Of a stretch of DNA of 64,000 bases, positions 5,335 through 63,474 are shown piece after piece. Each line of letters begins with the position of its first letter. The first letter of the stretch is position 1. This DNA is from Dehalococcoidia bacterium. GTDB lineage: Bacteria > Chloroflexota > Dehalococcoidia > Plut-88900. The stretch spans positions 2,752,001 to 2,816,000 of the forward strand of contig OZ240219.1 of assembly GCA_965197645.1 (NCBI GenBank). Direction: 5' to 3'. The notes below the pieces were generated by a model. It ran no database searches and was not told where the DNA came from. It saw nothing but the letters and a program-made list of their open reading frames with translations. A program made the translations under genes and the position numbers.

Positions 5335-6501
5335 CTAGGTGTTGTAGGCTCCATCCTGCCAGCCCCAGGACTCTCGCCAGGATCCGTCAAGGCCGTCGAA
5401 GCGGCTGAGCTTGAGCCCCGAGATATCGAAGGAGCACTTGCCTTCGGTTACCAGCTGGGTCACGGCGATCCCGGTGGCCGGGCACAGCCCGTACCCGTGG
5501 GCCGATGCGGTGACCAGCACAAACCCGTCCGGATCGTCCAGCCTATCGATGATGGGGTACTGGTCCGGCGCCTGCTCCACGATGCCCGCCCAGCTCCGAA
5601 GCACCGGCGTGTTCTCGACGCCCGGCAGCAGCTCGGCCAGCCTGCGGGCTATGTTGCGAATGAGGGGTGTGGTGGGCTTGGAGGGCTCGCTTTCCAGGTC
5701 CACCTCGGTCCACTCGTGTGCGCCGCCTCCGAAGATCAGGTTGCCCCGCAGCGTCTGGCGCCCGTACAGCCCATTGCCGGCCAACGCTATCCCAAATCTA
5801 GGCTCGAGGGGGACGGTGCAGATTATCTCCACCCTTGCAGGGGCTACCGGCACCTTCACACCGACCATCTCTGCGATGAGGGCAGTTTGCGGACCGGTGG
5901 CGCATACCACGGTCTCTGTGCTTATGGGCCCCTCCGTCGTATCCACGGATGTAATTTTGCCCTGCTCCATGTTGATACCCGTAACTGCCGTCCTCTCCCT
6001 CAACCTGCCTCCCCTGTCCAGGAACGCCCAACCGTAGGCCTGTACGGTGCGCTGGGTGTTGCCGTGGCCTCCGTTGGGCAAGAGGGCGCCGCCCAGGGCC
6101 TTTTCCGAGATGCCGGGTATCATGTCCTGCACCTGCAGAGCATCTATCATCTCCGCCTTTACGCCGAAATCGGATGCCTCGGACTTTTCCTCGTAGATGT
6201 GGCCCATCTCCTCCTCGGACATGCCGACGTGAAGCCGTCCTTCGTGGACGAACTCTACGGGATAGCCCAGCTCCTCCTCCAGGGTCGGCCATAGCTTCAG
6301 CGACTCGATGGCGATGGGCACGACGGGCGGCTCTCCGATTCGTTCGCTGATCATACCGCCGTTCCTGCCCGAAGCCTCGGACCCCACTGTCCCCTTCTCC
6401 ACCACCACTACGTCCAGGCCAGCCTTGGCGAGATAATAGGCTGAGCTGAGGCCCGATACGCCTCCTCCAACGACCACGACGTCTGCGCTATGGTTAGCCA
6501 T
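5335..6501 (-). CDS. FAD-dependent oxidoreductase, D-amino acid/sarcosine oxidase beta (HcnC-like) family
   Basis: VGGGVSGL, ASGRNGG, HGYGLCPATG; start moved to ATG 6501 (MANHSAD). Confidence 0.88.
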   Translation of the reverse strand: MANHSADVVVVGGGVSGLSSAYYLAKAGLDVVVVEKGTVGSEASGRNGGMISERIGEPPVVPIAIESLKLWPTLEEELGYPVEFVHEGRLHVGMSEEEMGHIYEEKSEASDFGVKAEMIDALQVQDMIPGISEKALGGALLPNGGHGNTQRTVQAYGWAFLDRGGRLRERTAVTGINMEQGKITSVDTTEGPISTETVVCATGPQTALIAEMVGVKVPVAPARVEIICTVPLEPRFGIALAGNGLYGRQTLRGNLIFGGGAHEWTEVDLESEPSKPTTPLIRNIARRLAELLPGVENTPVLRSWAGIVEQAPDQYPIIDRLDDPDGFVLVTASAHGYGLCPATGIAVTQLVTEGKCSFDISGLKLSRFDGLDGSWRESWGWQDGAYNT

Positions 6502-6515
6502 CTTCCTTTCCCGCA

Positions 6516-8024
6516 TCAGCTTCCGCGGTGAAGCTGCTCCATCTGCTCTGTAGGGTATCGGAACCACTTGACCCAGTCTGAGCGTACCTGCTCCGTCTCG
6601 TCCTGAGGCCACATGACCTTCAGAGGTATAGGCCGCACCGGGGCGCGGTAAGAGGGCTGCGGTACCCGGGAGATGTCTTCTCCGGTGGAACGGGCCACCA
6701 GCATCGCCACCTCCTCCCGGCACCTCCTACCCTGGCAGTAGCCCATGCCCGCCCTGGTGACCCTCTTCAGCTGGTTGAGGTCCACGGGGCCGGCGGCATT
6801 CATCGTCTCCATGTTTCTGCGGTCCATCGGTTCCGAGGACCAGTGGAGATAGCCGGGCGGTGATGTATCGATCAGGTCCCTACGGCTGACCTCTTCGCAC
6901 TGGCAGATGGTAGGCTCCATGCCTCCCGCTGCTATGAGAGATGATAACCAGGAATCGACATATTGGGCTTGAGACTCGTCTGCAGGTACATAAACGGGTC
7001 CTGAACTCGATAGGCCCAGCGCTGCGGCGGAGGCCGCCACGCCCTGAGAGATAGCGATATCAGGCTTGGCGACCATGGCCTCGGTGAACCCGCCGCCGTC
7101 GCCGACCACGTACACGTTCTCGATACTGCTCCTCATGTGGCCGTCTCTATCCGGCGCCCAGCCGCCGTGCCCGGCGCGGTAGCTCAGGTCGCAGCCTGTG
7201 ACGTAGGGCAGCTCAACGTTGGGCACCAGGCCTATAGCGAGGCAGACGGTATCACAGTCGATCTCCCGAGCGGTCCCACCAATGGGTCGATGCTCCTCGT
7301 CCACACCGGTAATCACGATCGACTCCACTTCTCGATGGCCCTTGACCTGCACCACAGTATGAGAGACATAGAAGGGTACGCCCCGAGCTTCTATCTCGGA
7401 CCGCAGTGCATCCTCGCCTCGTACCTCGGGGGCCACGTCCACGATGGCGGCAACATCCATGCCGTTGTCCAACGCCAGTTTTGCGGTGGACAGCCCTAGG
7501 TCTCCGGAACCCAAGACCACAATACGTCGCGCCGTCAGGGACTGGTACCGGCTGACCAGCGATTCCACTGCGTTGGCCCCCATTACCCCAACCAGCTCGC
7601 GGCCGGGAAAGGCCAGCGCCAGGTCTCGGGTGCCGGGTGCCAGAATGAGCCGGTCGTATTCCAGCATCCAGGACCGCTCCGCATCGGCCAGGCCCAGAAC
7701 GGGACTATCCAGCTGGCGGCTGTTCTCCTGATTGCGGAAGCTCCCCCAAACTGAGACCCCAAGCTGCACGTCGACGCCATGCTCCTGGGCCTCGTTCAAA
7801 AGCTGGTTGGAAGCCACTACCCGCTGGAGCATCAGGCCCCTGTCCGAGACCGTGGGCATCATGCGCTGACCGTAGAGATAGGGGATGTCCATGCCCATCA
7901 TCGACAGGCTGATCGGGTTCTCATCGATCAGGACGGTGTGAGCACCGGCCCGAGCCGACTCTATCGCCGCCGACGCCCCCGCCCGCCCTCCACCAACCAC
8001 TACCAGCTCCGCTCTATCCATCAT
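6516..8024 (-). CDS. FAD/NAD(P)-dependent oxidoreductase with C-terminal BFD-like [2Fe-2S] domain (HcnB/opine oxidase-like)
   Basis: VGGGRAG; ICQCEEV...KRVTRAGMGYCQGRRC...RAPVRP; start at ATG 8024. Confidence 0.85.
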   Translation of the reverse strand: MMDRAELVVVGGGRAGASAAIESARAGAHTVLIDENPISLSMMGMDIPYLYGQRMMPTVSDRGLMLQRVVASNQLLNEAQEHGVDVQLGVSVWGSFRNQENSRQLDSPVLGLADAERSWMLEYDRLILAPGTRDLALAFPGRELVGVMGANAVESLVSRYQSLTARRIVVLGSGDLGLSTAKLALDNGMDVAAIVDVAPEVRGEDALRSEIEARGVPFYVSHTVVQVKGHREVESIVITGVDEEHRPIGGTAREIDCDTVCLAIGLVPNVELPYVTGCDLSYRAGHGGWAPDRDGHMRSSIENVYVVGDGGGFTEAMVAKPDIAISQGVAASAAALGLSSSGPVYVPADESQAQYVDSWLSSLIAAGGMEPTICQCEEVSRRDLIDTSPPGYLHWSSEPMDRRNMETMNAAGPVDLNQLKRVTRAGMGYCQGRRCREEVAMLVARSTGEDISRVPQPSYRAPVRPIPLKVMWPQDETEQVRSDWVKWFRYPTEQMEQLHRGS

Positions 8025-8486: not shown

Positions 8487-8984
8487 CTACTTCTCCTCCC
8501 GAAATCTGGCTATCATCGTCTCGTGATTGATGGCCAGCAGCTCCCCCCGCTGATTGGTGTAGGTAATATCGTATTCAAAGAAGTAGAGGGTGCCCGTGCT
8601 TCCCCTCTTTTCGTATACGTCGGTAGTCTTCCAGCGGGCCGTTAGAACGTCGTCAGGACGGAAGGGTTGGAAGAACTCGTAGTCGTTGGCGGCTCGTATC
8701 TCATTTCCGATGGAGAGCCGGTACTGCCGGGCCGGCCCCCCGTTTTCGTCCAGATCGCTCCCCTGATAGTAGATCGTTTCGCATACGAAGGTAGGGGGAG
8801 CGATTATCCCCCCGTAGCGGGTGTTCTTGGCGAACTCCTCATCGGAGTAGAGGGGGTTCTCGTCTCCAATGGCCTGGGCGAAGCACCGGATGGCCGCTCT
8901 GCCTACCTCCTCGGGAGCGGTTATATCCATCTCCCTGCCCAGCATTCTCTCCCGCAACTCAGATATGTCGGGTCTCTCAACCAT
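8487..8984 (-). CDS. MaoC/FAS1-like dehydratase N-terminal hotdog protein
   Basis: FAQAIGDENPLY...GIIAPPTF motif; start at ATG 8984. Confidence 0.85.
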   Translation of the reverse strand: MVERPDISELRERMLGREMDITAPEEVGRAAIRCFAQAIGDENPLYSDEEFAKNTRYGGIIAPPTFVCETIYYQGSDLDENGGPARQYRLSIGNEIRAANDYEFFQPFRPDDVLTARWKTTDVYEKRGSTGTLYFFEYDITYTNQRGELLAINHETMIARFREEK

Positions 8985-9088
8985 AGTTCGTTCTCGAGAA
9001 GAGGGCCAGCCGCGATCGGTACCGTCTGCATCTGCGACGAACAAAGCCGGGATGCAAAGGCCGACTTCCTCGGAGGGTCGGAGGCCTT

Positions 9089-10159
9089 CTAGGCCGCCCC
9101 AGCTTTTCGCATCGCTAGGCCGGCGATCAGGTACATGATCACGTAGACGATGACCCTGTAGGTCACTGCGGACCCGGGAGGTATGCAGATGAAGGACATG
9201 CCGGAGAGGCCCCGTTTGCCGATCTCGTGAGCGATTCTGATCACCTCATACTCGGTCAGGCCTATCGGCTCGGCCAGCTCTCCCAGGATGTCGCCGGACG
9301 CCGGCCCTGCGCCACCGAGAACGTCCATGTCGAAGTGGACGTAAACCCCGGAGGTCCCATCGTAGGCCCGGTCCAGCTCATTGACCACGCCCTCGATGCC
9401 CAGGCCGCTCCTGACCTCCCACGAGGAAATGAAGCGAGCGCCGTCGTTCAGGTACCTGCGGACCGTCTTCGCCTCCTCCAGCATGCCCCGCTCACCGATC
9501 TCCACCAGGTGCCTGGGGTGCATGTTCTCCATGAACTCGTACATCTTGTACTTCCAGCTCCCGCTGCCGGCAATCCGTGGATCGTTGGTGAGGAAGTCTA
9601 TCTCCTGGGAGTCCCAGTGGGTATCCAGGCTTATGCAGCCCACTTCGCCGCCGGTCCGCTCCGCGATGGGCTTGGCGATGGCGTACGATCCCAACGGTGA
9701 GTTCTGGCCGATCACGACGGGGACCGCGCCCACATCGATGCAGTGGCCCACCTTCTCCTCTACCGACGCCTGGGCTTTGAGAATGTTCTCGGGCGATTGG
9801 TCCGCCATCACCTCAGGCGGTATATCCGCGTCCCCGTAATCAACCAGCTTCAGGTGCTCGAAGACGTCCAGATCGAAGTCCTGGATGTACCCGGAGCGAT
9901 AGCGTATAGACTGCTGTCGCACCCGCTTAGGGGCTTCTATCCAGTGCTTCTTGTGCACACCGGCGTACTCTTCAGTCGAGGTGGCCACGTAGGGCGCCCC
10001 GATAACTACGACGTCCGCTCCCTTCAGCTCTTCCGGAGATCGTGCGATGGGCGCCGCCATAAACGAAGGCGTTTCTGGCGCAATCAGCGGCGCATCCCTG
10101 TCAGCGGCGAAGCTGGTCCTAAGAAACTCCTCCCAAGATGGATACTCCATAGAGCACAT
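9089..10159 (-). CDS. Arginase/agmatinase (ureohydrolase) family protein
   Basis: DYGD, DTHWD (DxHxD), HFDMDVL (DxD), EPIGL; start at ATG 10159. Confidence 0.82.
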   Translation of the reverse strand: MCSMEYPSWEEFLRTSFAADRDAPLIAPETPSFMAAPIARSPEELKGADVVVIGAPYVATSTEEYAGVHKKHWIEAPKRVRQQSIRYRSGYIQDFDLDVFEHLKLVDYGDADIPPEVMADQSPENILKAQASVEEKVGHCIDVGAVPVVIGQNSPLGSYAIAKPIAERTGGEVGCISLDTHWDSQEIDFLTNDPRIAGSGSWKYKMYEFMENMHPRHLVEIGERGMLEEAKTVRRYLNDGARFISSWEVRSGLGIEGVVNELDRAYDGTSGVYVHFDMDVLGGAGPASGDILGELAEPIGLTEYEVIRIAHEIGKRGLSGMSFICIPPGSAVTYRVIVYVIMYLIAGLAMRKAGAA

Positions 10160-54443: not shown

Positions 54444-56462
54444 TTACGGCTGGACCCGTTTGCGTTTGTTGGATATGTAGTCGACCAGGATATACTCGCC
54501 GAGCCGCTCCGGCGTGGTGTAGAAGGCCCGGCCCTTGTTGATCTTCGTTACCTGGTTGACGAAATCCATCAGATAGTAGCTGGTGTCCAGCATGAAGATG
54601 TTTAGCGTGATGGCATCACGAGTGACCCGTTTGACCTCCCGGAGAGTGGCCTGGACCGTTTCCATGCTGGGGGGATACCAGAAGAAGGCCTGGTTGTCTT
54701 CCAGGTGGGCCGTGGGTTCGCCGTCGGTGACCATTATTATCTGCTTGTTATCGCACTTTCGCTTGGCCAAGAGCTTCCGAGCCAGCATCAGGGCGTGATG
54801 CATGTTGGTGCCGGGATAGTCTCCAGCGCAGTCGACTTCGGGTAGCATCTCGGCCTTCAGCTCCTGGGCGTACGCCGCGAACCCGATTATGTAGAAATCG
54901 TCCCGGGGGAACTGGGTAGTTATCAGGCTCTGCAGAGCCAGGGCCACCTTCTTGGCTCCAAACCAAGCGCCGCTTATGTCCATCGAGCGGCTCTGGTCCA
55001 GCAGCAGTACCGTAGCGCTGCGTGTGACGTGCTCCGGGCGGTAGATCTCCAGGTCCTCCGGGAGGAGCTTCACCGGCACCCCGGCACCTCCCCTCTCGAC
55101 CGCGTTGAGTAGGGTCTTTTGCATATGAATAGAGAAGGGGTCTCCGTACTCGTAGGTCTTGGTCTCGTCTATGTCCTCAACCGCCAGACCCCGATTGCGT
55201 ATGTCGTGGGCCCCTTGCCTGTCTTTTTTCAAGTTCTGGAATATGTCTCGAAGGGCCTTCTGACCTATGCGTCGCAGCCCCTTGGGAGTCAGCTCCAGCC
55301 GGTTGCCTCTGTGACGGATGTATCCCGCCTCCTCCAGCTCCTTCACCAGGTTTTCCAGCGCCTCGATCTCCTGTCTAGCCTCATCTCCTAGGACCTGCTG
55401 GATCTTCTCCGTATCGATCCCCTCCAGGGCACGGCTACGCATCGCCTGTTCCAGCTGCTTCTCCAGCGATTCCACATCCTGGAGCTGCTCCATCAGCTTC
55501 ATCGCCTCTTCCCAGGAGACCTGCTCTTCTCCCTGGAAGGGGTACAGGTCTCGAAACTCCTCCGAGGGGAACAGTGACTCCAAGTTCATTGCCATTTCGC
55601 CCAGCAGGTCCCGAAGCTCGTTGTCCAGTATTTGAGACTCCAACAGGTCCTGCAGGGACTGCTGCATCTCCGGCGAGAGGCTGTCCATCAAAGACTGCAT
55701 CTGGCCTATCTGTCTCTGGAGCTGCTCTATGAAGTCCTCCAGGTTATCGGGAGCTCCGGGGAAGAACTGGCCGTACCGCTGCATAAAGCCCTGGTAGTCG
55801 GGATCGAGGCCCATGCGCTGTTGCTCCATCATCTCGTTCAGCGCCTGGAGCATGTCTTTCATGGCGTCGAGCTGCTCCGGAGTCATCTGCTTGAGCCGCT
55901 CCTCCATGTCCTTGACGTAAGGCTCCAGCATTCGCTGGCGGAGCATATCGAGGAGCTCTTGGAACTCCTGGCGCGCCTCGTCATCGACGAAATCGTAGTC
56001 GCTCAGTGCTTTGACGGTGCCACCGAAGCTGTCCGGCAGATCGTCGAGGAACTGTTGCTTCTTCGATACCATATCTTCGAGCAGCTTCTTGAGGCTATCG
56101 CCGTCTTCTACGTCAGCCGGCGCCTCCTTGGAGGCGTCATCCATCCTCTTCTCCAGCCCCTCCCGCTCCTTCTGTACTATCGAGTCCAGCTTGTCCTTCA
56201 GCTCATCGAACATCGAGTCCAGGTTGTATTGGCCCAGCTGCTGGTCCCGCTTCTGCTTGAGGCGCTTCAGCAGGTCTTTCAGTCCGGCCATGCGCTGACC
56301 CTGGCGGGTGGTCATGCCCCGCTCCATCATTCGTCTCATGGCGGTCTGCAGATCGCCGTAAGTGAGCAGGTCCTGCTCCAATGCGTCAAGCAGCTCCTCC
56401 GGGGCTATCTGGAAGGGTTCACTGCTGCCGTCCCAACGTGAGTATCTGTAGCTAATGACCAT
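54444..56462 (-). CDS. VWA domain-containing protein (partner of chelatase-like AAA+ ATPase)
   Basis: YRYSRWDG N-terminus; MIDAS DQSRSM, TNM, TDGEPT. Confidence 0.88.
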   Translation of the reverse strand: MVISYRYSRWDGSSEPFQIAPEELLDALEQDLLTYGDLQTAMRRMMERGMTTRQGQRMAGLKDLLKRLKQKRDQQLGQYNLDSMFDELKDKLDSIVQKEREGLEKRMDDASKEAPADVEDGDSLKKLLEDMVSKKQQFLDDLPDSFGGTVKALSDYDFVDDEARQEFQELLDMLRQRMLEPYVKDMEERLKQMTPEQLDAMKDMLQALNEMMEQQRMGLDPDYQGFMQRYGQFFPGAPDNLEDFIEQLQRQIGQMQSLMDSLSPEMQQSLQDLLESQILDNELRDLLGEMAMNLESLFPSEEFRDLYPFQGEEQVSWEEAMKLMEQLQDVESLEKQLEQAMRSRALEGIDTEKIQQVLGDEARQEIEALENLVKELEEAGYIRHRGNRLELTPKGLRRIGQKALRDIFQNLKKDRQGAHDIRNRGLAVEDIDETKTYEYGDPFSIHMQKTLLNAVERGGAGVPVKLLPEDLEIYRPEHVTRSATVLLLDQSRSMDISGAWFGAKKVALALQSLITTQFPRDDFYIIGFAAYAQELKAEMLPEVDCAGDYPGTNMHHALMLARKLLAKRKCDNKQIIMVTDGEPTAHLEDNQAFFWYPPSMETVQATLREVKRVTRDAITLNIFMLDTSYYLMDFVNQVTKINKGRAFYTTPERLGEYILVDYISNKRKRVQP

Positions 56463-56585
56463 CTTGTCCTCTGGCCGTCTGCTCAGGCGTCCACTTCGTC
56501 GAGCCGTCCCTTGCAGGATACCACAGACCACCGACTTGAAGTCCGTCTCCCCGCTATTTGTTGCGCTGTCCGGTCCCAGCCGGCT

Positions 56586-58921: not shown

Positions 58922-59008
58922 GTCGCATACTACGCCTTCCGCCGTTTGCATTCCCACCCCTGATCTCATATATTGGGCGTCGGGCCCGACCCAGTCGATA
59001 CCTTACCC

Positions 59009-60049
59009 ATGACCTCAACCGGAGAAAGTACAGGCACGGCTCCGAATATCGTCGTTATCGGCGGTGGCACCGGTAACTACGTCGTGCTCAAAGGCCTCAA
59101 GCAACACACACCCAACCTCACCGCTATTGTCGCCATGAGCGATAGTGGAGGAAGCTCCGGACGCCTGCGGGACGAGCTGGGTCATCTGCCCCCCGGCGAC
59201 CTGAGACAGTGCCTGGTTGCCCTGGCCCCGGACAGCCACTCTGACCTCATCCTTCGCCAGCTGTTCGACTATCGCTTCGACCGGGGCACAGGCCTGGAGG
59301 GCCACAGCTTCGGCAACCTGTTCCTAGCCGCGCTAACAGAGATTTCCGGCAGCATCGCCGACGCCATCCTGGAGGCCGGCAGAATGCTCAATATCAAGGG
59401 CAGGGTCTTGCCGGTGACCCTGACCAAGACCAACCTTCACGCCAAGCTGGTTGATGGCTCCGAGGTGATCGGAGAAGCCAGCATCGACGTCCGGCGGGAG
59501 AAAGTCGGCGTCCGAATCGACTACGTTTACCTGAGTCCCAAGGCCTACATACATCCTCCGGCCATCACGGCTATCCAGGAGGCGGACCTGGTAATCATGG
59601 GCCCTGGAGACCTGTACACCAGCATCATCCCCAATCTGCTCGTCGACGGTCTCAGTGACGCCATCCGCCACTCCAATGCCCAGGTGGTGCACGTATGTAA
59701 CCTGATGACCAAGCCCGGCGAGTCCGATTCCTTCAAGGCCTCCGACTTTGTGAAGGAGGTCACGGAGTACATGGGCGCCGGCGCCCGCATCGATCACCTG
59801 CTTCTCAATACCGCTCCCATGCCGCAGAAGCTGGTGGACCGGTACAAACGAGCCGATGCCTACCCCGTGGAAGCGGACATCGACGAGTGCCGGGCCATCG
59901 TGCCCAACATCGTCCAGCTGCCGATGCTCGCTTCAGGGGCCACCCTGCGCCACGACTCCTATGCCCTCGCTCAAGCGATCATGGAGATAGCAGGGTCGGC
60001 GTCCTTCCGATCGAAGGACGCCACCGGGGCCGAGCTGGCCGCCGGTTAG
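59009..60049 (+). CDS. YvcK/CofD family protein (gluconeogenesis factor)
   Basis: IGGGTG, DSGGSSGRLR, PPGDLR, GHSFGNL, GPGDLYTSIIPNL, RHD. Confidence 0.92.
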   Translation: MTSTGESTGTAPNIVVIGGGTGNYVVLKGLKQHTPNLTAIVAMSDSGGSSGRLRDELGHLPPGDLRQCLVALAPDSHSDLILRQLFDYRFDRGTGLEGHSFGNLFLAALTEISGSIADAILEAGRMLNIKGRVLPVTLTKTNLHAKLVDGSEVIGEASIDVRREKVGVRIDYVYLSPKAYIHPPAITAIQEADLVIMGPGDLYTSIIPNLLVDGLSDAIRHSNAQVVHVCNLMTKPGESDSFKASDFVKEVTEYMGAGARIDHLLLNTAPMPQKLVDRYKRADAYPVEADIDECRAIVPNIVQLPMLASGATLRHDSYALAQAIMEIAGSASFRSKDATGAELAAG

Positions 60050-60082
60050 CTCACCCCCCGCCCGGTCTGTTTGCCCTGCCAC

Positions 60083-60106
60083 CCACCCCGGATTGCATCC
60101 GTAGGC
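60083..60106. repeat. 24-bp REP-like sequence, copy 1 (copy 2 at 63656-63679)
   Basis: CCACCCCGGATTGCATCCGTAGGC identical at both sites. Confidence 0.8.
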
Positions 60107-60168
60107 GTCATGCCCCCTACCTCAAGAAGGGTCTTACTTACGAGGAAATCAATCGTGTATACTTCCAA

Positions 60169-60318
60169 ATGAGTCGCCTGCAGCACAGGATTAATCGTTG
60201 CCGCTGATCCAGCGGTGACCTTTGCCGAGGTTGGCTCTACGCTCGGTGCTGAGTCAGTATCCATGATTCCACTGGCACCATTTCCGAGGAAAGCGAAATT
60301 CAGTTGCAGGCGACTCAT
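60169..60318 (+). ncRNA. Retron msr-msd ncRNA
   Basis: Perfect 14-bp inverted repeat ATGAGTCGCCTGCA (60169-60182) / TGCAGGCGACTCAT (60305-60318); G60183 follows the 5' arm; internal hairpin CCGCTG-ATC-CAGCGG; ends 5 nt before the RT ATG. Confidence 0.85.
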
Positions 60319-60323
60319 ATTTT

Positions 60324-61916
60324 ATGTTTGACGCACAAAACATCAAGCCAGCACTAACTCGAAGCTCCGACCAATTTCAGGAGCTATTTTGGACCCTCAA
60401 ACGGCCTGAAGACATAGCTGACATGCTCGAAGTCTCCTATCGTGATCTCAACTATTGGATCTATCGCACCCCTGAACCGAGACGATACAGTGCATTTCTT
60501 GTTCCCAAAAAGAGTGGAGGGTCGCGCAGGATTGATATACCCAACACCAATATCAAGATATTGCAAAAGAAATTGAACCAGGTGTTGCGGTCAGTCTATC
60601 GTACCAAGCCGAGTGTGCATGGATTCGTAGTGGGGAAGAGCGTACGGTCTAACGCCCAGCAACATGTAGGGAAGCGTTGGGTATTCAATATCGATCTTCA
60701 AGACTTCTTCCCCTCGATCAACTTCGGACGAGTACGGGGCATGTTCATGGGTAAGCCGTACCACCTGCCCGAGAAAGTGGCAACCGTATTAGCCCATCTT
60801 TGTTGCTTCCAGGGCCATCTTCCGCAAGGTGCTCCCACGTCTCCGGTCATCAGCAACATGATCTGTGCCCAGATGGATAGCCAGTTGCAGCAACTAGCTC
60901 AGAGGAATGGCTCAATTTACACTCGATACGCCGATGACATAACGTTCTCTACTAATTGGAACAGGGTTCCGCTGGAGATATCCGCCACCAACAGCGTAAA
61001 TCAGATAATCCCAGGAGATAAACTCCGCCAGACAGTCGAGCAAAACGGTTTTTCAATAAACAGCAGGAAGGTGTGGTTGCGCGGCCGACACCGTCGGCAA
61101 GTAGTGACAGGTGTTACGGTCAACGATTACCCGAATTTGCCGCGGAAATTCACGAATCAGATACGGGCGATGTTATACGCATGGAGGGAACATGGGCTAT
61201 GTGCGGCCCAAGAACATTGGGCGAAAAAGCACTCTACCAAGCATCGAGTTTCTTGGCGAACCTATCATCAATTCAAGCGAGCTCTAAAGGGTAAGATTGA
61301 GTATTTGGGGATGATAAAGGGTCAAGATTCCCACACCTATCTTAAGTTTCTTGACCAATTGGGTGACTTGGACATCACCCTTACTCACGGAAAAGGAACA
61401 CCGTTACGGCAGCTCCTTCGACGTTATGACCAGTTATCGATTGAGAATGAATTGATTAGCCACCAGGCCCGAGGCTATTGTCTTGAAGAGATTATGAATG
61501 GTTTGTTTGAGCTGTCCGGGATTCTGGTTAAGGCCAGCTTCACCAGGAACGCAGGCGGTGAACAGATCGATGGGGCATTCGAGTTCGGAGGCTGGTACTA
61601 CTTGGTCGAGTGCCGATGGCGGTCCAAGAAAGCAAGTAAGAGTGATGTAGACGGGCTACGGGGCAAGTTAGATCTGTCCGGCGCTCAGACAATGGGTTTG
61701 TTCATTTCGGTAAACGGATGGTCTCAACATGTCGTGAATCTGCTCAAACAGACTCCAGATAAGAAAGTGTTGTTAATGAACGGGGACGATATTCGTGCGG
61801 TGTTAAAGAAAGACATTTCTTTTGGTTCCCTGCTTCAGGCTAAAGTCGAAGCACTGAATCTTCAATCCGAGCCCTTTGTTGGTGTCGCCGACATCCTCTC
61901 GAAGGAGTCTCTTTAG
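60324..61916 (+). CDS. Retron reverse transcriptase fused to a C-terminal Mrr-like PD-(D/E)XK endonuclease domain
   Basis: PKKSGG.R.I, NAQQH (region X), DLQDFFPSI, LPQGAPTSP, YADD (aa 202-205), VTG (aa 261-263); C-terminal RGYCLEE...EQIDG...LVECRW...GLFISVNGW. Confidence 0.92.
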   Translation: MFDAQNIKPALTRSSDQFQELFWTLKRPEDIADMLEVSYRDLNYWIYRTPEPRRYSAFLVPKKSGGSRRIDIPNTNIKILQKKLNQVLRSVYRTKPSVHGFVVGKSVRSNAQQHVGKRWVFNIDLQDFFPSINFGRVRGMFMGKPYHLPEKVATVLAHLCCFQGHLPQGAPTSPVISNMICAQMDSQLQQLAQRNGSIYTRYADDITFSTNWNRVPLEISATNSVNQIIPGDKLRQTVEQNGFSINSRKVWLRGRHRRQVVTGVTVNDYPNLPRKFTNQIRAMLYAWREHGLCAAQEHWAKKHSTKHRVSWRTYHQFKRALKGKIEYLGMIKGQDSHTYLKFLDQLGDLDITLTHGKGTPLRQLLRRYDQLSIENELISHQARGYCLEEIMNGLFELSGILVKASFTRNAGGEQIDGAFEFGGWYYLVECRWRSKKASKSDVDGLRGKLDLSGAQTMGLFISVNGWSQHVVNLLKQTPDKKVLLMNGDDIRAVLKKDISFGSLLQAKVEALNLQSEPFVGVADILSKESL

Positions 61917-62079
61917 TAGGCTCTAAACATTGGCCAACTTTTCAAATTTGTGACATTGTTCGCCCACGTTGACGCAGATTGCTCAATTCGATTACCGACC
62001 ACAACCCACCGGAACCGGGGGACTTGTTATGAGCGCTAACGCATCTCAGCCGAGCCCTCACTAGGCTAGCTCACCCAAG

Positions 62080-63474
62080 CTAGGCCGTATAGCGGTACCC
62101 GGTCTTTTCCTGCTTGCTCTTGTTGAGACTCCGGTTCAGATGGAGCCCCTCCAGAACAAACTCGATGGCCGAGGCCGCCGATGCAGATTCCTTATCGCAT
62201 CCCAGGCGCTTCACCGCCTCGTCGACTCCATCCAGGGATCTGAGCGATCGAGCGAAGGACCGGGACGCCTTGAATTCCGAGGTCTCAAAGGTAAATCCGG
62301 TCTCGAATTTTTGGACCACCTCAGCGAAGTCCTCTTTGGCGAAGTACCTGTTGAAGACGTTGGCCGCGGCCCTCTTGATCAGCTCCTCCAGAATCTGCTC
62401 GGCCCGCTCCTCTTCCACCGTCTCCAGCTCCAGTTTCCCGATGGTCGAGGACGCAATGTAGGGCAGATCGGACATCCTGGGCGCCACGACCCTCTCCTTG
62501 TTTCTGATGGAGCGGCGCACTGCGTTTCCCACTATGCTTTCGTAGTTGGCCGTAGAGATCCGAACGCTGACCCCCGAGCGCTGGTTGATATCGGGGCTGT
62601 TCCGGGCCAGGTTTGTGATCTCGGCGATGATCTCCTTCATGAACTGGGGGATCACAGTGGTGCGCCCATCGTCGAACTTCGTGCGCTCCATGTCCATGAT
62701 CTCTATCTCGACGTCCGGGCTCAGGGGGTAGTGGGTCCTGATCTGCGCTCCGTACCTGTCCTTCAGGGGAGTGATGATCCGGCCCCGGTTGGTATAGTCT
62801 TCCGGGTTGGCGCTGGAGACGACGTATACATCGAGGGGCAGCCTCACCCGGTATCCCTTGATCTGTATGTCCCGCTCCTCCATCAGGTTGAACAGGCCCA
62901 CCTGGATACGCTCGGCCAGGTCCGGCAGCTCGTTAATGCAGAATATCCCGCGGTTGGTCCTGGGGATCAGGCCGAAGTGGATCGTCAGCTCATCGGAGAG
63001 GTACCTTCCCTCCGCCACTTTAATGGGGTCGATCTCGCCGATCAGGTCGGCGACGGTGATGTCCGGAGTTGCCAGCTTCTCGCCGTACCGTTCGTCGCGC
63101 GGAAGCCAGTCTATCTCCGTCTCGTCGCCCTGCTGCTCGACCTTGTCGATACACGGCCTGCATATGGGAGCGAAGGGATTGTCGCTTATCTCGCAACCCT
63201 TGATAACGGGGACCTCCTCATCGAGAAGGCCCACCAGCGCCCGGATAATCCGGCTCTTGGCCTGGCCCCGTTCCCCCAGTAAGATTATGTCCTGGCCGGC
63301 CAGGATGGCATTCTCTATCAACGGGATGACGGTCTCATCGTATCCCATGATCCCGGGAAAGACCGGCTCATCGTTTTCCAATCTGGTGATGAGGTTCTTC
63401 CTCAGCTCCTCGCGCACCGTCAGGACCGGATACGACTCCTTTTTCAGATCACCGATGGTCTTCATCTTCGCCAT
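62080..63474 (-). CDS. Magnesium chelatase-like AAA+ ATPase
   Basis: GERGQAKS Walker A, INELPDL, SANPEDYTNRGRIITPLKDR. Confidence 0.9.
   Translation of the reverse strand: MAKMKTIGDLKKESYPVLTVREELRKNLITRLENDEPVFPGIMGYDETVIPLIENAILAGQDIILLGERGQAKSRIIRALVGLLDEEVPVIKGCEISDNPFAPICRPCIDKVEQQGDETEIDWLPRDERYGEKLATPDITVADLIGEIDPIKVAEGRYLSDELTIHFGLIPRTNRGIFCINELPDLAERIQVGLFNLMEERDIQIKGYRVRLPLDVYVVSSANPEDYTNRGRIITPLKDRYGAQIRTHYPLSPDVEIEIMDMERTKFDDGRTTVIPQFMKEIIAEITNLARNSPDINQRSGVSVRISTANYESIVGNAVRRSIRNKERVVAPRMSDLPYIASSTIGKLELETVEEERAEQILEELIKRAAANVFNRYFAKEDFAEVVQKFETGFTFETSEFKASRSFARSLRSLDGVDEAVKRLGCDKESASAASAIEFVLEGLHLNRSLNKSKQEKTGYRYTA

Follow-up and report, generated by a model that had tools for sequence, protein, structure and literature searches.

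A candidate single-gene retron in a Dehalococcoidia genome: a reverse transcriptase fused to an Mrr-like nuclease domain downstream of a structured RNA

A 64,000-nt stretch of the genome of a Dehalococcoidia bacterium (Chloroflexota; assembly GCA_965197645.1, contig OZ240219.1, positions 2,752,001 to 2,816,000 of the forward strand; hereafter the window, whose own numbering we use) carries a gene for a 530-residue protein that joins a retron-type reverse transcriptase (RT) to a restriction-type nuclease domain, with a structured non-coding RNA (ncRNA) directly upstream (Table 1). An earlier note, made from the sequence alone, had described this locus as a single-gene retron, and its description was largely borne out: the open reading frame (ORF) with retron RT motifs, the helical linker, the C-terminal Mrr-like domain, the structured upstream RNA, the lack of a separate effector gene and the AT-rich composition were all recovered by the analyses reported here.

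The fusion protein

Pfam RVT_1 covers residues 60-251 of the protein (expect value (E) 4.6e-20). In an alignment of 24 full-length RT-fusion relatives with 50-72% identity, the RT motifs lie where the earlier note had placed them and are invariant: N110 and H114 of NAQQH, YADD at 202-205, and VTG at 261-263. NAxxH (region X), YxDD, and VTG (region Y) are the defining motifs of retron RTs. Three PADLOC models give the highest scores, RT-Protease_XI (441.6 bits, E 1.1e-132), RT-TIR_XII (432.9 bits, E 3.9e-130), and RT-Toprim_I-C (387.9 bits, E 2e-116), and the remaining retron RT models reach at most 270 bits. All three matches span only residues ~20-352 and only the RT part of the models (positions 6-322 of 510 in XI and ~3-313 of 529 in I-C; the XI and XII matches stop at ~322-333 of 475-510). 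The NCBIfam models Retron_TIR (367.6 bits, cut-off 600) and retron_Ec67_fus (338.4 bits, cut-off 450) likewise match the RT part only. Pfam detects no trypsin-like protease (Trypsin_2), TIR, or TOPRIM domain in the window protein, the domains that define types XI, XII, and I-C, respectively.

The closest solved protein found with a family profile is retron Ec67 (Eco2; E 2.2e-82), followed by Ec86 (3e-45). An AlphaFold model of the full-length protein has a mean predicted local distance difference test score (pLDDT) of 85.2 and a predicted template modelling score (pTM) of 0.62; a Foldseek search with this model places Eco2 cryo-EM structures on top (E 1.4e-28) and other retron RTs next. The linker is formed by helices within residues 274-373. 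The PADLOC scores, the Ec67 match, the Foldseek result, and a tree of 63 RT domains described below all place the RT with retrons. Judged by its sequence, the N-terminal part of the protein is a retron-lineage RT with intact catalytic motifs.

The C-terminal domain matches Pfam Mrr_cat (PF04471) at residues 384-492 with 24.0 bits, above the cut-off of 21, rising to 26.7 bits when the scan is confined to the C-terminal 187 residues. A model of residues 344-530 based on 45 sequences has a pLDDT of 87.8 and a pTM of 0.84. Both this model and the full-length one contain an alpha-beta-beta-beta-alpha-beta core, the order of elements found in PD-(D/E)XK proteins. Foldseek matches the C-terminal model best to MspJI (E 8.8e-5), then to Cdn1, EndoMS, HindIII, AF1548, EcoT38I, AspBHI, and FokI. 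VIA-align, a structural aligner independent of Foldseek, ranks N.BspD6I first (Z 11.5), followed by the small subunit of R.BspD6I (10.8), the FokI cleavage domain (10.0), Mrr-like AF1548 (9.4), and the LlaBIII nuclease (8.5); its remaining matches with Z of at least 8.0 are restriction-type folds as well (HindIII 8.2, EcoT38I 8.0, VC1899 8.0). Can2, Card1, and Avs4 are also among the structural matches. With restriction-type nucleases heading both lists, the modelled PD-(D/E)XK fold of the C-terminal domain, which the earlier note had singled out for checking, can be called secure.

Among solved proteins, the CRISPR-associated nuclease Cdn1 alone matches significantly by sequence (E 2.7e-5), and its D and E-C-K align in register with D416 and E429-C-R431. 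The nuclease motifs named in the earlier note lie at the residues it gave, and the key positions (R383/G384, Q414/D416, E429/C430, G465/W466) are invariant among the 24 aligned fusions. D416 and E429 are present in 24/24 RT fusions and in 45/45 sequences of the nuclease module. The third motif position is split evenly in the fusions (12 R, 12 K) and is mostly arginine in the wider module set (39 R, 6 K). The PD-(D/E)XK pattern proposed by the earlier note thus holds for the two acidic residues, whereas the window carries D...E-x-R and not the canonical E-x-K. Because arginine is unusual at this position and predominates in the module family, nuclease activity is not assured; with D416 and E429 invariant and the third position always R or K, the sequence makes catalytic competence likely.

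The domain resembles Mrr/type IV and type IIS nucleases (Mrr_cat, FokI, BspD6I, AF1548) in its fold and in a D...E-x-K/R motif on strands 2 and 3. Unlike them, it lacks a DNA-recognition domain, is attached to an RT, and has R for K, and its sequence identity to solved restriction enzymes is only 8-15%. Cdn1, Can1/Can2, Card1, Cap4, and Avs proteins also carry a PD-(D/E)XK domain, in their case the killing module of an immune protein and subject to regulation; the control, however, comes from CARF/SAVED or STAND domains and not from an RT with its msDNA. PADLOC finds only faint matches to the C-terminal module (PDC-S02, E 5e-4; CARF_PDDEXK, 0.05). A homodimer prediction with two copies of the C-terminal domain scored 0.00 against a mark of 0.42, which is evidence neither way.

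The upstream RNA and the inserted unit

The region just upstream of the fusion gene is bounded by a perfect 14-nt inverted repeat (60169-60182 / 60305-60318) that extends to 16 bp with one G-U pair. The enclosed 158-nt stretch has a minimum free energy of -69.8 kcal/mol (z = -6.2 relative to 200 shuffles). We compared RT-fused relatives drawn from species-representative genomes and metagenome contigs. Thirteen distinct loci had sufficient upstream sequence, and in 11 of these the best inverted repeat measures 12-16 bp and differs in sequence each time, with 116-139 nt between the arms and the a2 arm ending 15-45 nt before the start codon. Twelve aligned regions yield a consensus structure of 30 pairs, and compensatory double changes occur in 17 of these. 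Pairing is kept in 95.8% of cells, versus 36-47% when partners are slid by 1-3 columns, and 0/500 shuffles reach the covariation score. In helix 1, both sides have changed in 12/13 pairs. This terminal helix encloses three elements: a short helix that is conserved, a hairpin that hardly varies, and a segment of 45-70 nt with variable sequence, which in most members forms a hairpin closed by a conserved CTCGC/GCGAG stem base; the window's CTCGG/CCGAG is the sole compensatory pair of helix 5 (85% paired).

A covariance model built from the 12 aligned sequences (R1) finds the ncRNA directly upstream of the RT in three members outside its training set, L005 (115 bits), L142 (95), and the frameshifted L003 (73). 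R1 also matches upstream of ~30 other RTs of the same clade, protease and TIR fusions included, and in 0/12 loci that have the nuclease module without an RT. As read from covariation and position, the ncRNA has the msr-msd gene layout and sits where a retron RNA is expected. A permissive Rfam search of 59500-62500 returned a chance snoRNA-like match only (E 7.8), which we discarded.

Table 1. Features of the RT-nuclease locus and its borders (window coordinates)
Feature	Position	Strand	Basis or remark
YvcK/CofD-like gene, left flank	58973-60049	+	
Left direct-repeat copy TAGCTCACCC, 10 bp	60047-60056		overlaps yvcK stop codon; marks left edge of unit
Inserted unit, ~2 kb (ncRNA and RT-nuclease gene)	60057-62066		AT-richer than host flanks
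Retron-type ncRNA, msr-msd candidate, 156 nt	60166-60321	+	covariance model R1, 136.6 bits
a1 arm of terminal inverted repeat	60169-60184	+	inverted-repeat search
Near-invariant msr hairpin TTGCCGCTG-ATC-CAGCGGTGA	60198-60218	+	helix 3, 99.1% paired across 12 sequences
Variable hairpin, msd stem-loop candidate, presumed template of multicopy single-stranded DNA (msDNA)	60242-60288	+	per-sequence folds; helix 5
a2 arm of terminal inverted repeat	60303-60318	+	ends 5 nt before ATG
RT-nuclease fusion gene, 530 aa	60324-61916	+	ORF; Pfam; PADLOC; homologues; AlphaFold
Retron RT domain, aa 23-351	60390-61376	+	PADLOC, Ec67 match, Foldseek
YADD, aa 202-205	60927-60938	+	invariant in family alignment
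PD-(D/E)XK / Mrr_cat core, aa 384-492	61473-61799	+	Pfam, structure models, structural matches
Putative catalytic residues D416, E429, R431	61569-61571, 61608-61610, 61614-61616	+	
Right direct-repeat copy TAGCTCACCC, 10 bp	62067-62076		3 nt before stop codon of convergent AAA+ gene
AAA+ ATPase gene (MoxR/ChlI-like), right flank	62080-63474	-	

The ncRNA and the fusion gene form a unit that differs from its surroundings in composition. GC content is 0.47-0.52 over ~60200-62000 versus 0.60-0.62 in the flanks, and the element stays at ~0.5 in several hosts of 0.60-0.67 GC. In 9/9 loci compared, all from relatives in the same family, yvcK runs towards a convergent AAA+ gene with hardly any gap between the two, and none of these nine junctions has an RT match, so the site is empty there; in the window the gap between the two genes is 2030 nt. 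Contigs from a second study (depth ~8) contain the element at the same site in a diverged strain. They differ from the window at 17 positions in the left 557 nt, 18 in the right 524 nt, and 2 in the ~2-kb unit, i.e. the flanks diverge by ~3% around a near-identical island, and the low-divergence tract runs from ~59924 to ~62169. This comparison, which drew on four runs and shows presence and strain differences only, suggests from the sequences a recent exchange of the unit between strains by transfer or recombination; no contig of the four runs joins across an empty site. The empty site in relatives, the drop in GC, and the near-identical island in a diverged strain establish that the ~2-kb unit was horizontally acquired.

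The 10-bp TAGCTCACCC repeat at the borders carries little weight, because a repeat of at least equal length arises in 19/200 shuffles and the other 13 family loci have no flanking direct repeats clearly beyond chance. The native yvcK end of the nearest relative, GGCTAGCTCA, resembles the right TAGCTCACCC copy. We considered TAGCTCACCC as a target-site duplication and rejected this assignment, since flanking repeats in the family are within chance.

The element's only neighbours are the YvcK/CofD-like gene and the AAA+ gene, host genes that are adjacent in relatives; the AAA+ ATPase is host backbone outside the element because it is conserved beside yvcK there. No flanking ORF is common to the 14 family loci, except in the syntenic pair L001/L084, and no conserved partner gene or separate effector emerged from the comparison. 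The window's genome (3.2 Mb, one contig) has one RT and one copy of the nuclease module, and no others were found in it. A 695-residue protein with a vWA domain (54444-56531, - strand) is encoded a few kb from the MoxR/ChlI-like AAA+ gene, on the opposite side of the element.

Relatives of the fusion and of its nuclease module

The fusion recurs widely in metagenomes. Among the best 120 of 6275 matches in a collection of 5.8 billion proteins, 112 cover at least 89% of the query at 49-72% identity, and PF04471 is precomputed on 38 of these 120. In the source databases their only labels are 'reverse transcriptase domain-containing protein' and 'RNA-directed DNA polymerase'. The fusion subclade comprises more than 100 clusters at 90% identity. 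The best 80 RT loci in species-representative genomes include four intact members (a Dehalococcoidia metagenome-assembled genome (MAG), an unclassified bacterium MAG, a Syntrophorhabdales MAG, and an uncultured bacterium) and one frameshifted member (a Chloroflexota MAG).

A careful maximum-likelihood tree of 63 RT domains puts 14/15 RT-Mrr proteins into one clade of 16 (ultrafast bootstrap 100, SH-aLRT 92). The tree omits broken or YxDD-less ORFs (L003, L025, L032, L044, L063, L070, L074, and others), the YxDD-containing but unscanned ORFs L027, L042, L059, L068, and L077, and near-duplicates. The clade is completed by L006, with a C-terminal part that is divergent beyond the linker and truncated at the contig end, and by the short L008 (430 aa); the fifteenth RT-Mrr protein, L134, falls just outside, beside L007. 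Six-frame searches of L006, L007, and L008 for a hidden nuclease module gave only a 30-residue linker match, in L006. The RT-Mrr clade lies nested in a part of the tree occupied by protease fusions, RT-only proteins, and RTs whose C-termini match no Pfam family. TIR fusions are monophyletic (100/96) elsewhere in the tree, and Trypsin_2 is present in 16 other RTs of the wider RT clade. The window protein thus resembles types XI (RT-trypsin-like protease) and XII (RT-TIR) of RT clade 8 in its best-scoring RT models, its single-gene layout, and an ncRNA of the same kind, R1 matching upstream of protease- and TIR-type RTs. It differs from them in having neither a protease nor a TIR domain and in that RT-Mrr proteins form their own supported subclade.

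Several relatives deserve mention in their own right. L003:3887-5560 is decayed, with a frameshift after ~residue 300 beyond which the nuclease module goes on in another frame; L008:1464-2753 is also decayed and ends without the module. In L001, a Dehalococcoidia MAG, three paralogous ORFs of ~270 to ~460 aa (1062-2450, 5598-6812, and 8748-9566, all on the - strand) flank the RT-Mrr gene, as they do in its syntenic relative L084, and are 30-37% identical to the L084 orthologue. L020:3956-5569, from a Chloroflexota MAG, joins an RT of the same clade to a C-terminal Schlafen/AlbA_2 domain (PF04326, E 2.5e-12) and has an R1 match just upstream (46.4 bits); the main texts of the retron classifications do not name this fusion. 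In ten RTs of the clade (L007, L012, L014, L015, L022, L030, L045, L056, L064, L072), the 360-430 residues that follow YADD match nothing in Pfam at E <= 0.001. L023 has 251 such residues, again with no Pfam match, and clusters with L014, L022, and L030 in a cyanobacterial clade of good support. These long C-termini are possibly further effector domains. RT-only forms of this RT clade, ~365 aa long (L009, L010, L013, L016, L021, L024, L028) come mostly from cyanobacteria, one of them from a Nostoc plasmid, and carry R1 matches upstream.

The nuclease module reaches well beyond RTs. A metagenome scan with the C-terminal alignment returned 295 relatives, and RT fusions account for 12 of the 80 loci kept; most of the remainder are ORFs of ~310-350 aa in which the same module, at ~50% identity, follows unrelated N-termini. 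A profile search of 1.84 billion representatives gave 3005 proteins with E <= 0.001, 1713 with E <= 1e-10, and 114 with E <= 1e-30. Among the best 150 profile matches the length is mostly ~300 aa, and 20 scanned proteins of at least 388 aa comprise 15 RT fusions and 5 with other N-termini that have no Pfam match. Within the window's phylum, 8/201 sampled genomes contain the module, and in just one of the eight, that of the window, is the frame long enough to encode an RT fusion. Because most copies sit on non-RT proteins with diverse N-termini, the module, on sequence grounds, is a mobile C-terminal domain of effector type, and the retron is one of its several hosts.

Within this set, a stand-alone family (L083-L160; e.g. 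L095:3554-4495 and L121:3551-4477) has ~300-350 residues with the module at the C-terminus, preceded by a ~140-aa helical domain and a coiled coil that match no Pfam or PADLOC family. The stand-alone genes have no conserved neighbour beyond one protein family found in only 5/26 loci, at varying positions. In L117:2525-4519, a 665-aa open frame, and in L119, the module follows an array of 'integrase repeat unit' domains (INT_rpt, PF14882).

Proposed mechanism, alternatives, and classification

In our view the locus is probably a single-gene retron that fits none of the 13 published types and acts through a PD-(D/E)XK nuclease caged by msDNA. The model for this is Eco2/Ec67 (type I-C), the best solved relative by sequence and by fold and, in the available texts, the only RT-effector fusion with a worked-out mechanism. 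In Eco2, a trimer on branched msDNA cages the TOPRIM domains; once the phage nuclease DenB has degraded the msDNA, the released nuclease cleaves tRNA. The authors of that work suggest that other fusion retrons work likewise (PMC12916289, available text). Like Eco2, the window's element has one protein that runs from an N-terminal retron RT through a helical linker to a C-terminal nuclease, and an ncRNA directly upstream, but its effector is PD-(D/E)XK/Mrr_cat rather than TOPRIM.

By analogy with Eco2, which supplies the ideas of msDNA synthesis, caging, phage trigger, substrate, and abortive outcome alike, the ncRNA would be transcribed jointly with the RT-nuclease gene. The RT would copy the msd hairpin into msDNA, priming from a guanosine beside the a1/a2 stem, and the RNA-DNA hybrid would remain bound to the protein and keep the C-terminal domain inactive. 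Phage infection would disturb or degrade the msDNA and free the nuclease domains to cleave nucleic acid, most likely DNA, which would halt the infection at the cell's expense. The domain's likeness to the cleavage domains of FokI and BspD6I suggests DNA cutting without sequence specificity, possibly dependent on domain pairing; FokI cleavage domains cut as pairs. A more far-reaching version, to which we give slightly less than even odds, holds that RT-Mrr is a functional fourteenth retron type whose msDNA cages a FokI/Mrr-like DNase, so that loss of msDNA would license indiscriminate DNA cutting. Its R/K-variant module would also kill in the ~300-aa proteins, and the retron would have borrowed or donated the effector of a second, uncharacterised immune family with N-terminal sensor domains.

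A number of observations weigh against a retron with a caged DNase. The window has R431 and not lysine at the third catalytic position, and the domain arrangement in the full-length model is uncertain, as its pTM indicates. Because the inverted repeats were used to set the ends of the RNA alignment, the pair counts are biased towards helix 1; no Rfam family matches the ncRNA, and its sequence alone does not single out the branching guanosine. A promoter and terminator scan found no sigma-70-like promoter on the + strand upstream of the ncRNA, with counts not above those of shuffles. The Eco2 TOPRIM domain, finally, proved to cut tRNA and not DNA (PMC12916289, available text). This last point leads to a variant in which the same retron frees a PD-(D/E)XK domain that cuts RNA, e.g. 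tRNA, and shuts down translation as in Eco2. The closest characterised relative does so with a domain expected to be a DNase, and an R-for-K motif is not a textbook DNA restriction active site; yet the best structural matches (BspD6I, FokI, AF1548, LlaBIII, HindIII, MspJI) are DNA-cleaving or restriction-type, and we regard an RNA substrate as unlikely. The arginine could also mark a catalytically dead domain that binds nucleic acid or oligomerises, for example to hold msDNA, with defence arising otherwise or not at all. R replaces the canonical K in most of the module family as well as in the window, and the Pfam score is barely above its cut-off. Against a dead domain, D416 and E429 never vary, the third position always keeps its positive charge, and the same module occupies the C-terminal, effector position behind many unrelated N-terminal domains; such a loss of activity appears decidedly unlikely.

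Two further explanations take the nuclease out of defence. It could serve the element's own cycle by trimming the ncRNA or msDNA during maturation, as some msDNAs are nuclease-processed in vivo (census preprint, PMC10849725, available text) and no other effector is present. Sister fusions, however, carry TIR, protease, TOPRIM, or Schlafen-type domains, which are effectors in type and not processing factors, and the module is also found without any RT, making a maturation role very improbable. Alternatively, the unit could be a self-mobile retroelement similar to R2, an RT with a C-terminal restriction-like endonuclease, inserted by target-primed reverse transcription. The clean insertion between two genes with TAGCTCACCC on both sides, the near-identity of the island in a diverged strain, and R2 structures low in the fold-match lists would fit. 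But the element is single-copy in each genome, its border repeat is of a length that shuffles reach and has no clear counterpart in the other family loci, its RT belongs to the retron lineage within a clade bearing TIR or protease domains, and its ncRNA has the retron a1/a2 layout; an R2-like origin is scarcely credible.

The RT fusions named in the main texts of the retron literature searched do not include this one. Mestre et al. 2020 report Toprim, TIR, and trypsin-like protease fusions in RT clade 8 and DUF3800 fusions in clade 4, and their main text contains 'Mrr', 'restriction endonuclease', and 'PF04471' 0 times each. A 2021 FEMS review names TOPRIM, DUF3800, peptidase, and TIR, and the 2026 Eco2 paper types I-C, VII-A1, XI, and XII (PMC12916289), as far as their available texts go. 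The earlier note had suggested that retron classifications contain some RT-PD-(D/E)XK fusions, which the main texts, as distinct from the supplementary tables, do not support. An RT-Mrr retron is undescribed in the full-text literature searched; the classification supplements, which lie outside that search, may list it as unclassified or under another label. Because the fusion is missing from the published lists, at the level of their main texts, RT-Mrr is an unlisted retron variant: an RT clade 8 retron with a fourth, unlisted effector domain and an unclassified single-gene type. The candidate new architecture of the earlier note is in this sense supported; it is not unique to this locus but belongs to a family found widely. 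Clade 8 is known to swap its C-terminal domains, which makes RT-Mrr plausible rather than startling.

Single-protein retrons are the most compact retron systems and are sought for their mechanism and as genome-editing tools, and for only one of them, Eco2, is the mechanism known from the available literature. If our reading is right, an RT joined to a restriction-type nuclease would provide a second, independent test case for msDNA caging of a cis-linked nuclease, this time with a DNA-cutting and not an RNA-cutting effector. Beyond the three C-terminal partners that the main text of the 2020 classification lists, the RT clade has Mrr_cat, Schlafen/AlbA_2, and several long C-termini that match no Pfam family, and tools that label such genes by the RT alone are therefore likely to misname them. 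Through the shared module, retrons are connected with a great many uncharacterised proteins of ~300 aa, whose genes are candidates for stand-alone defence.

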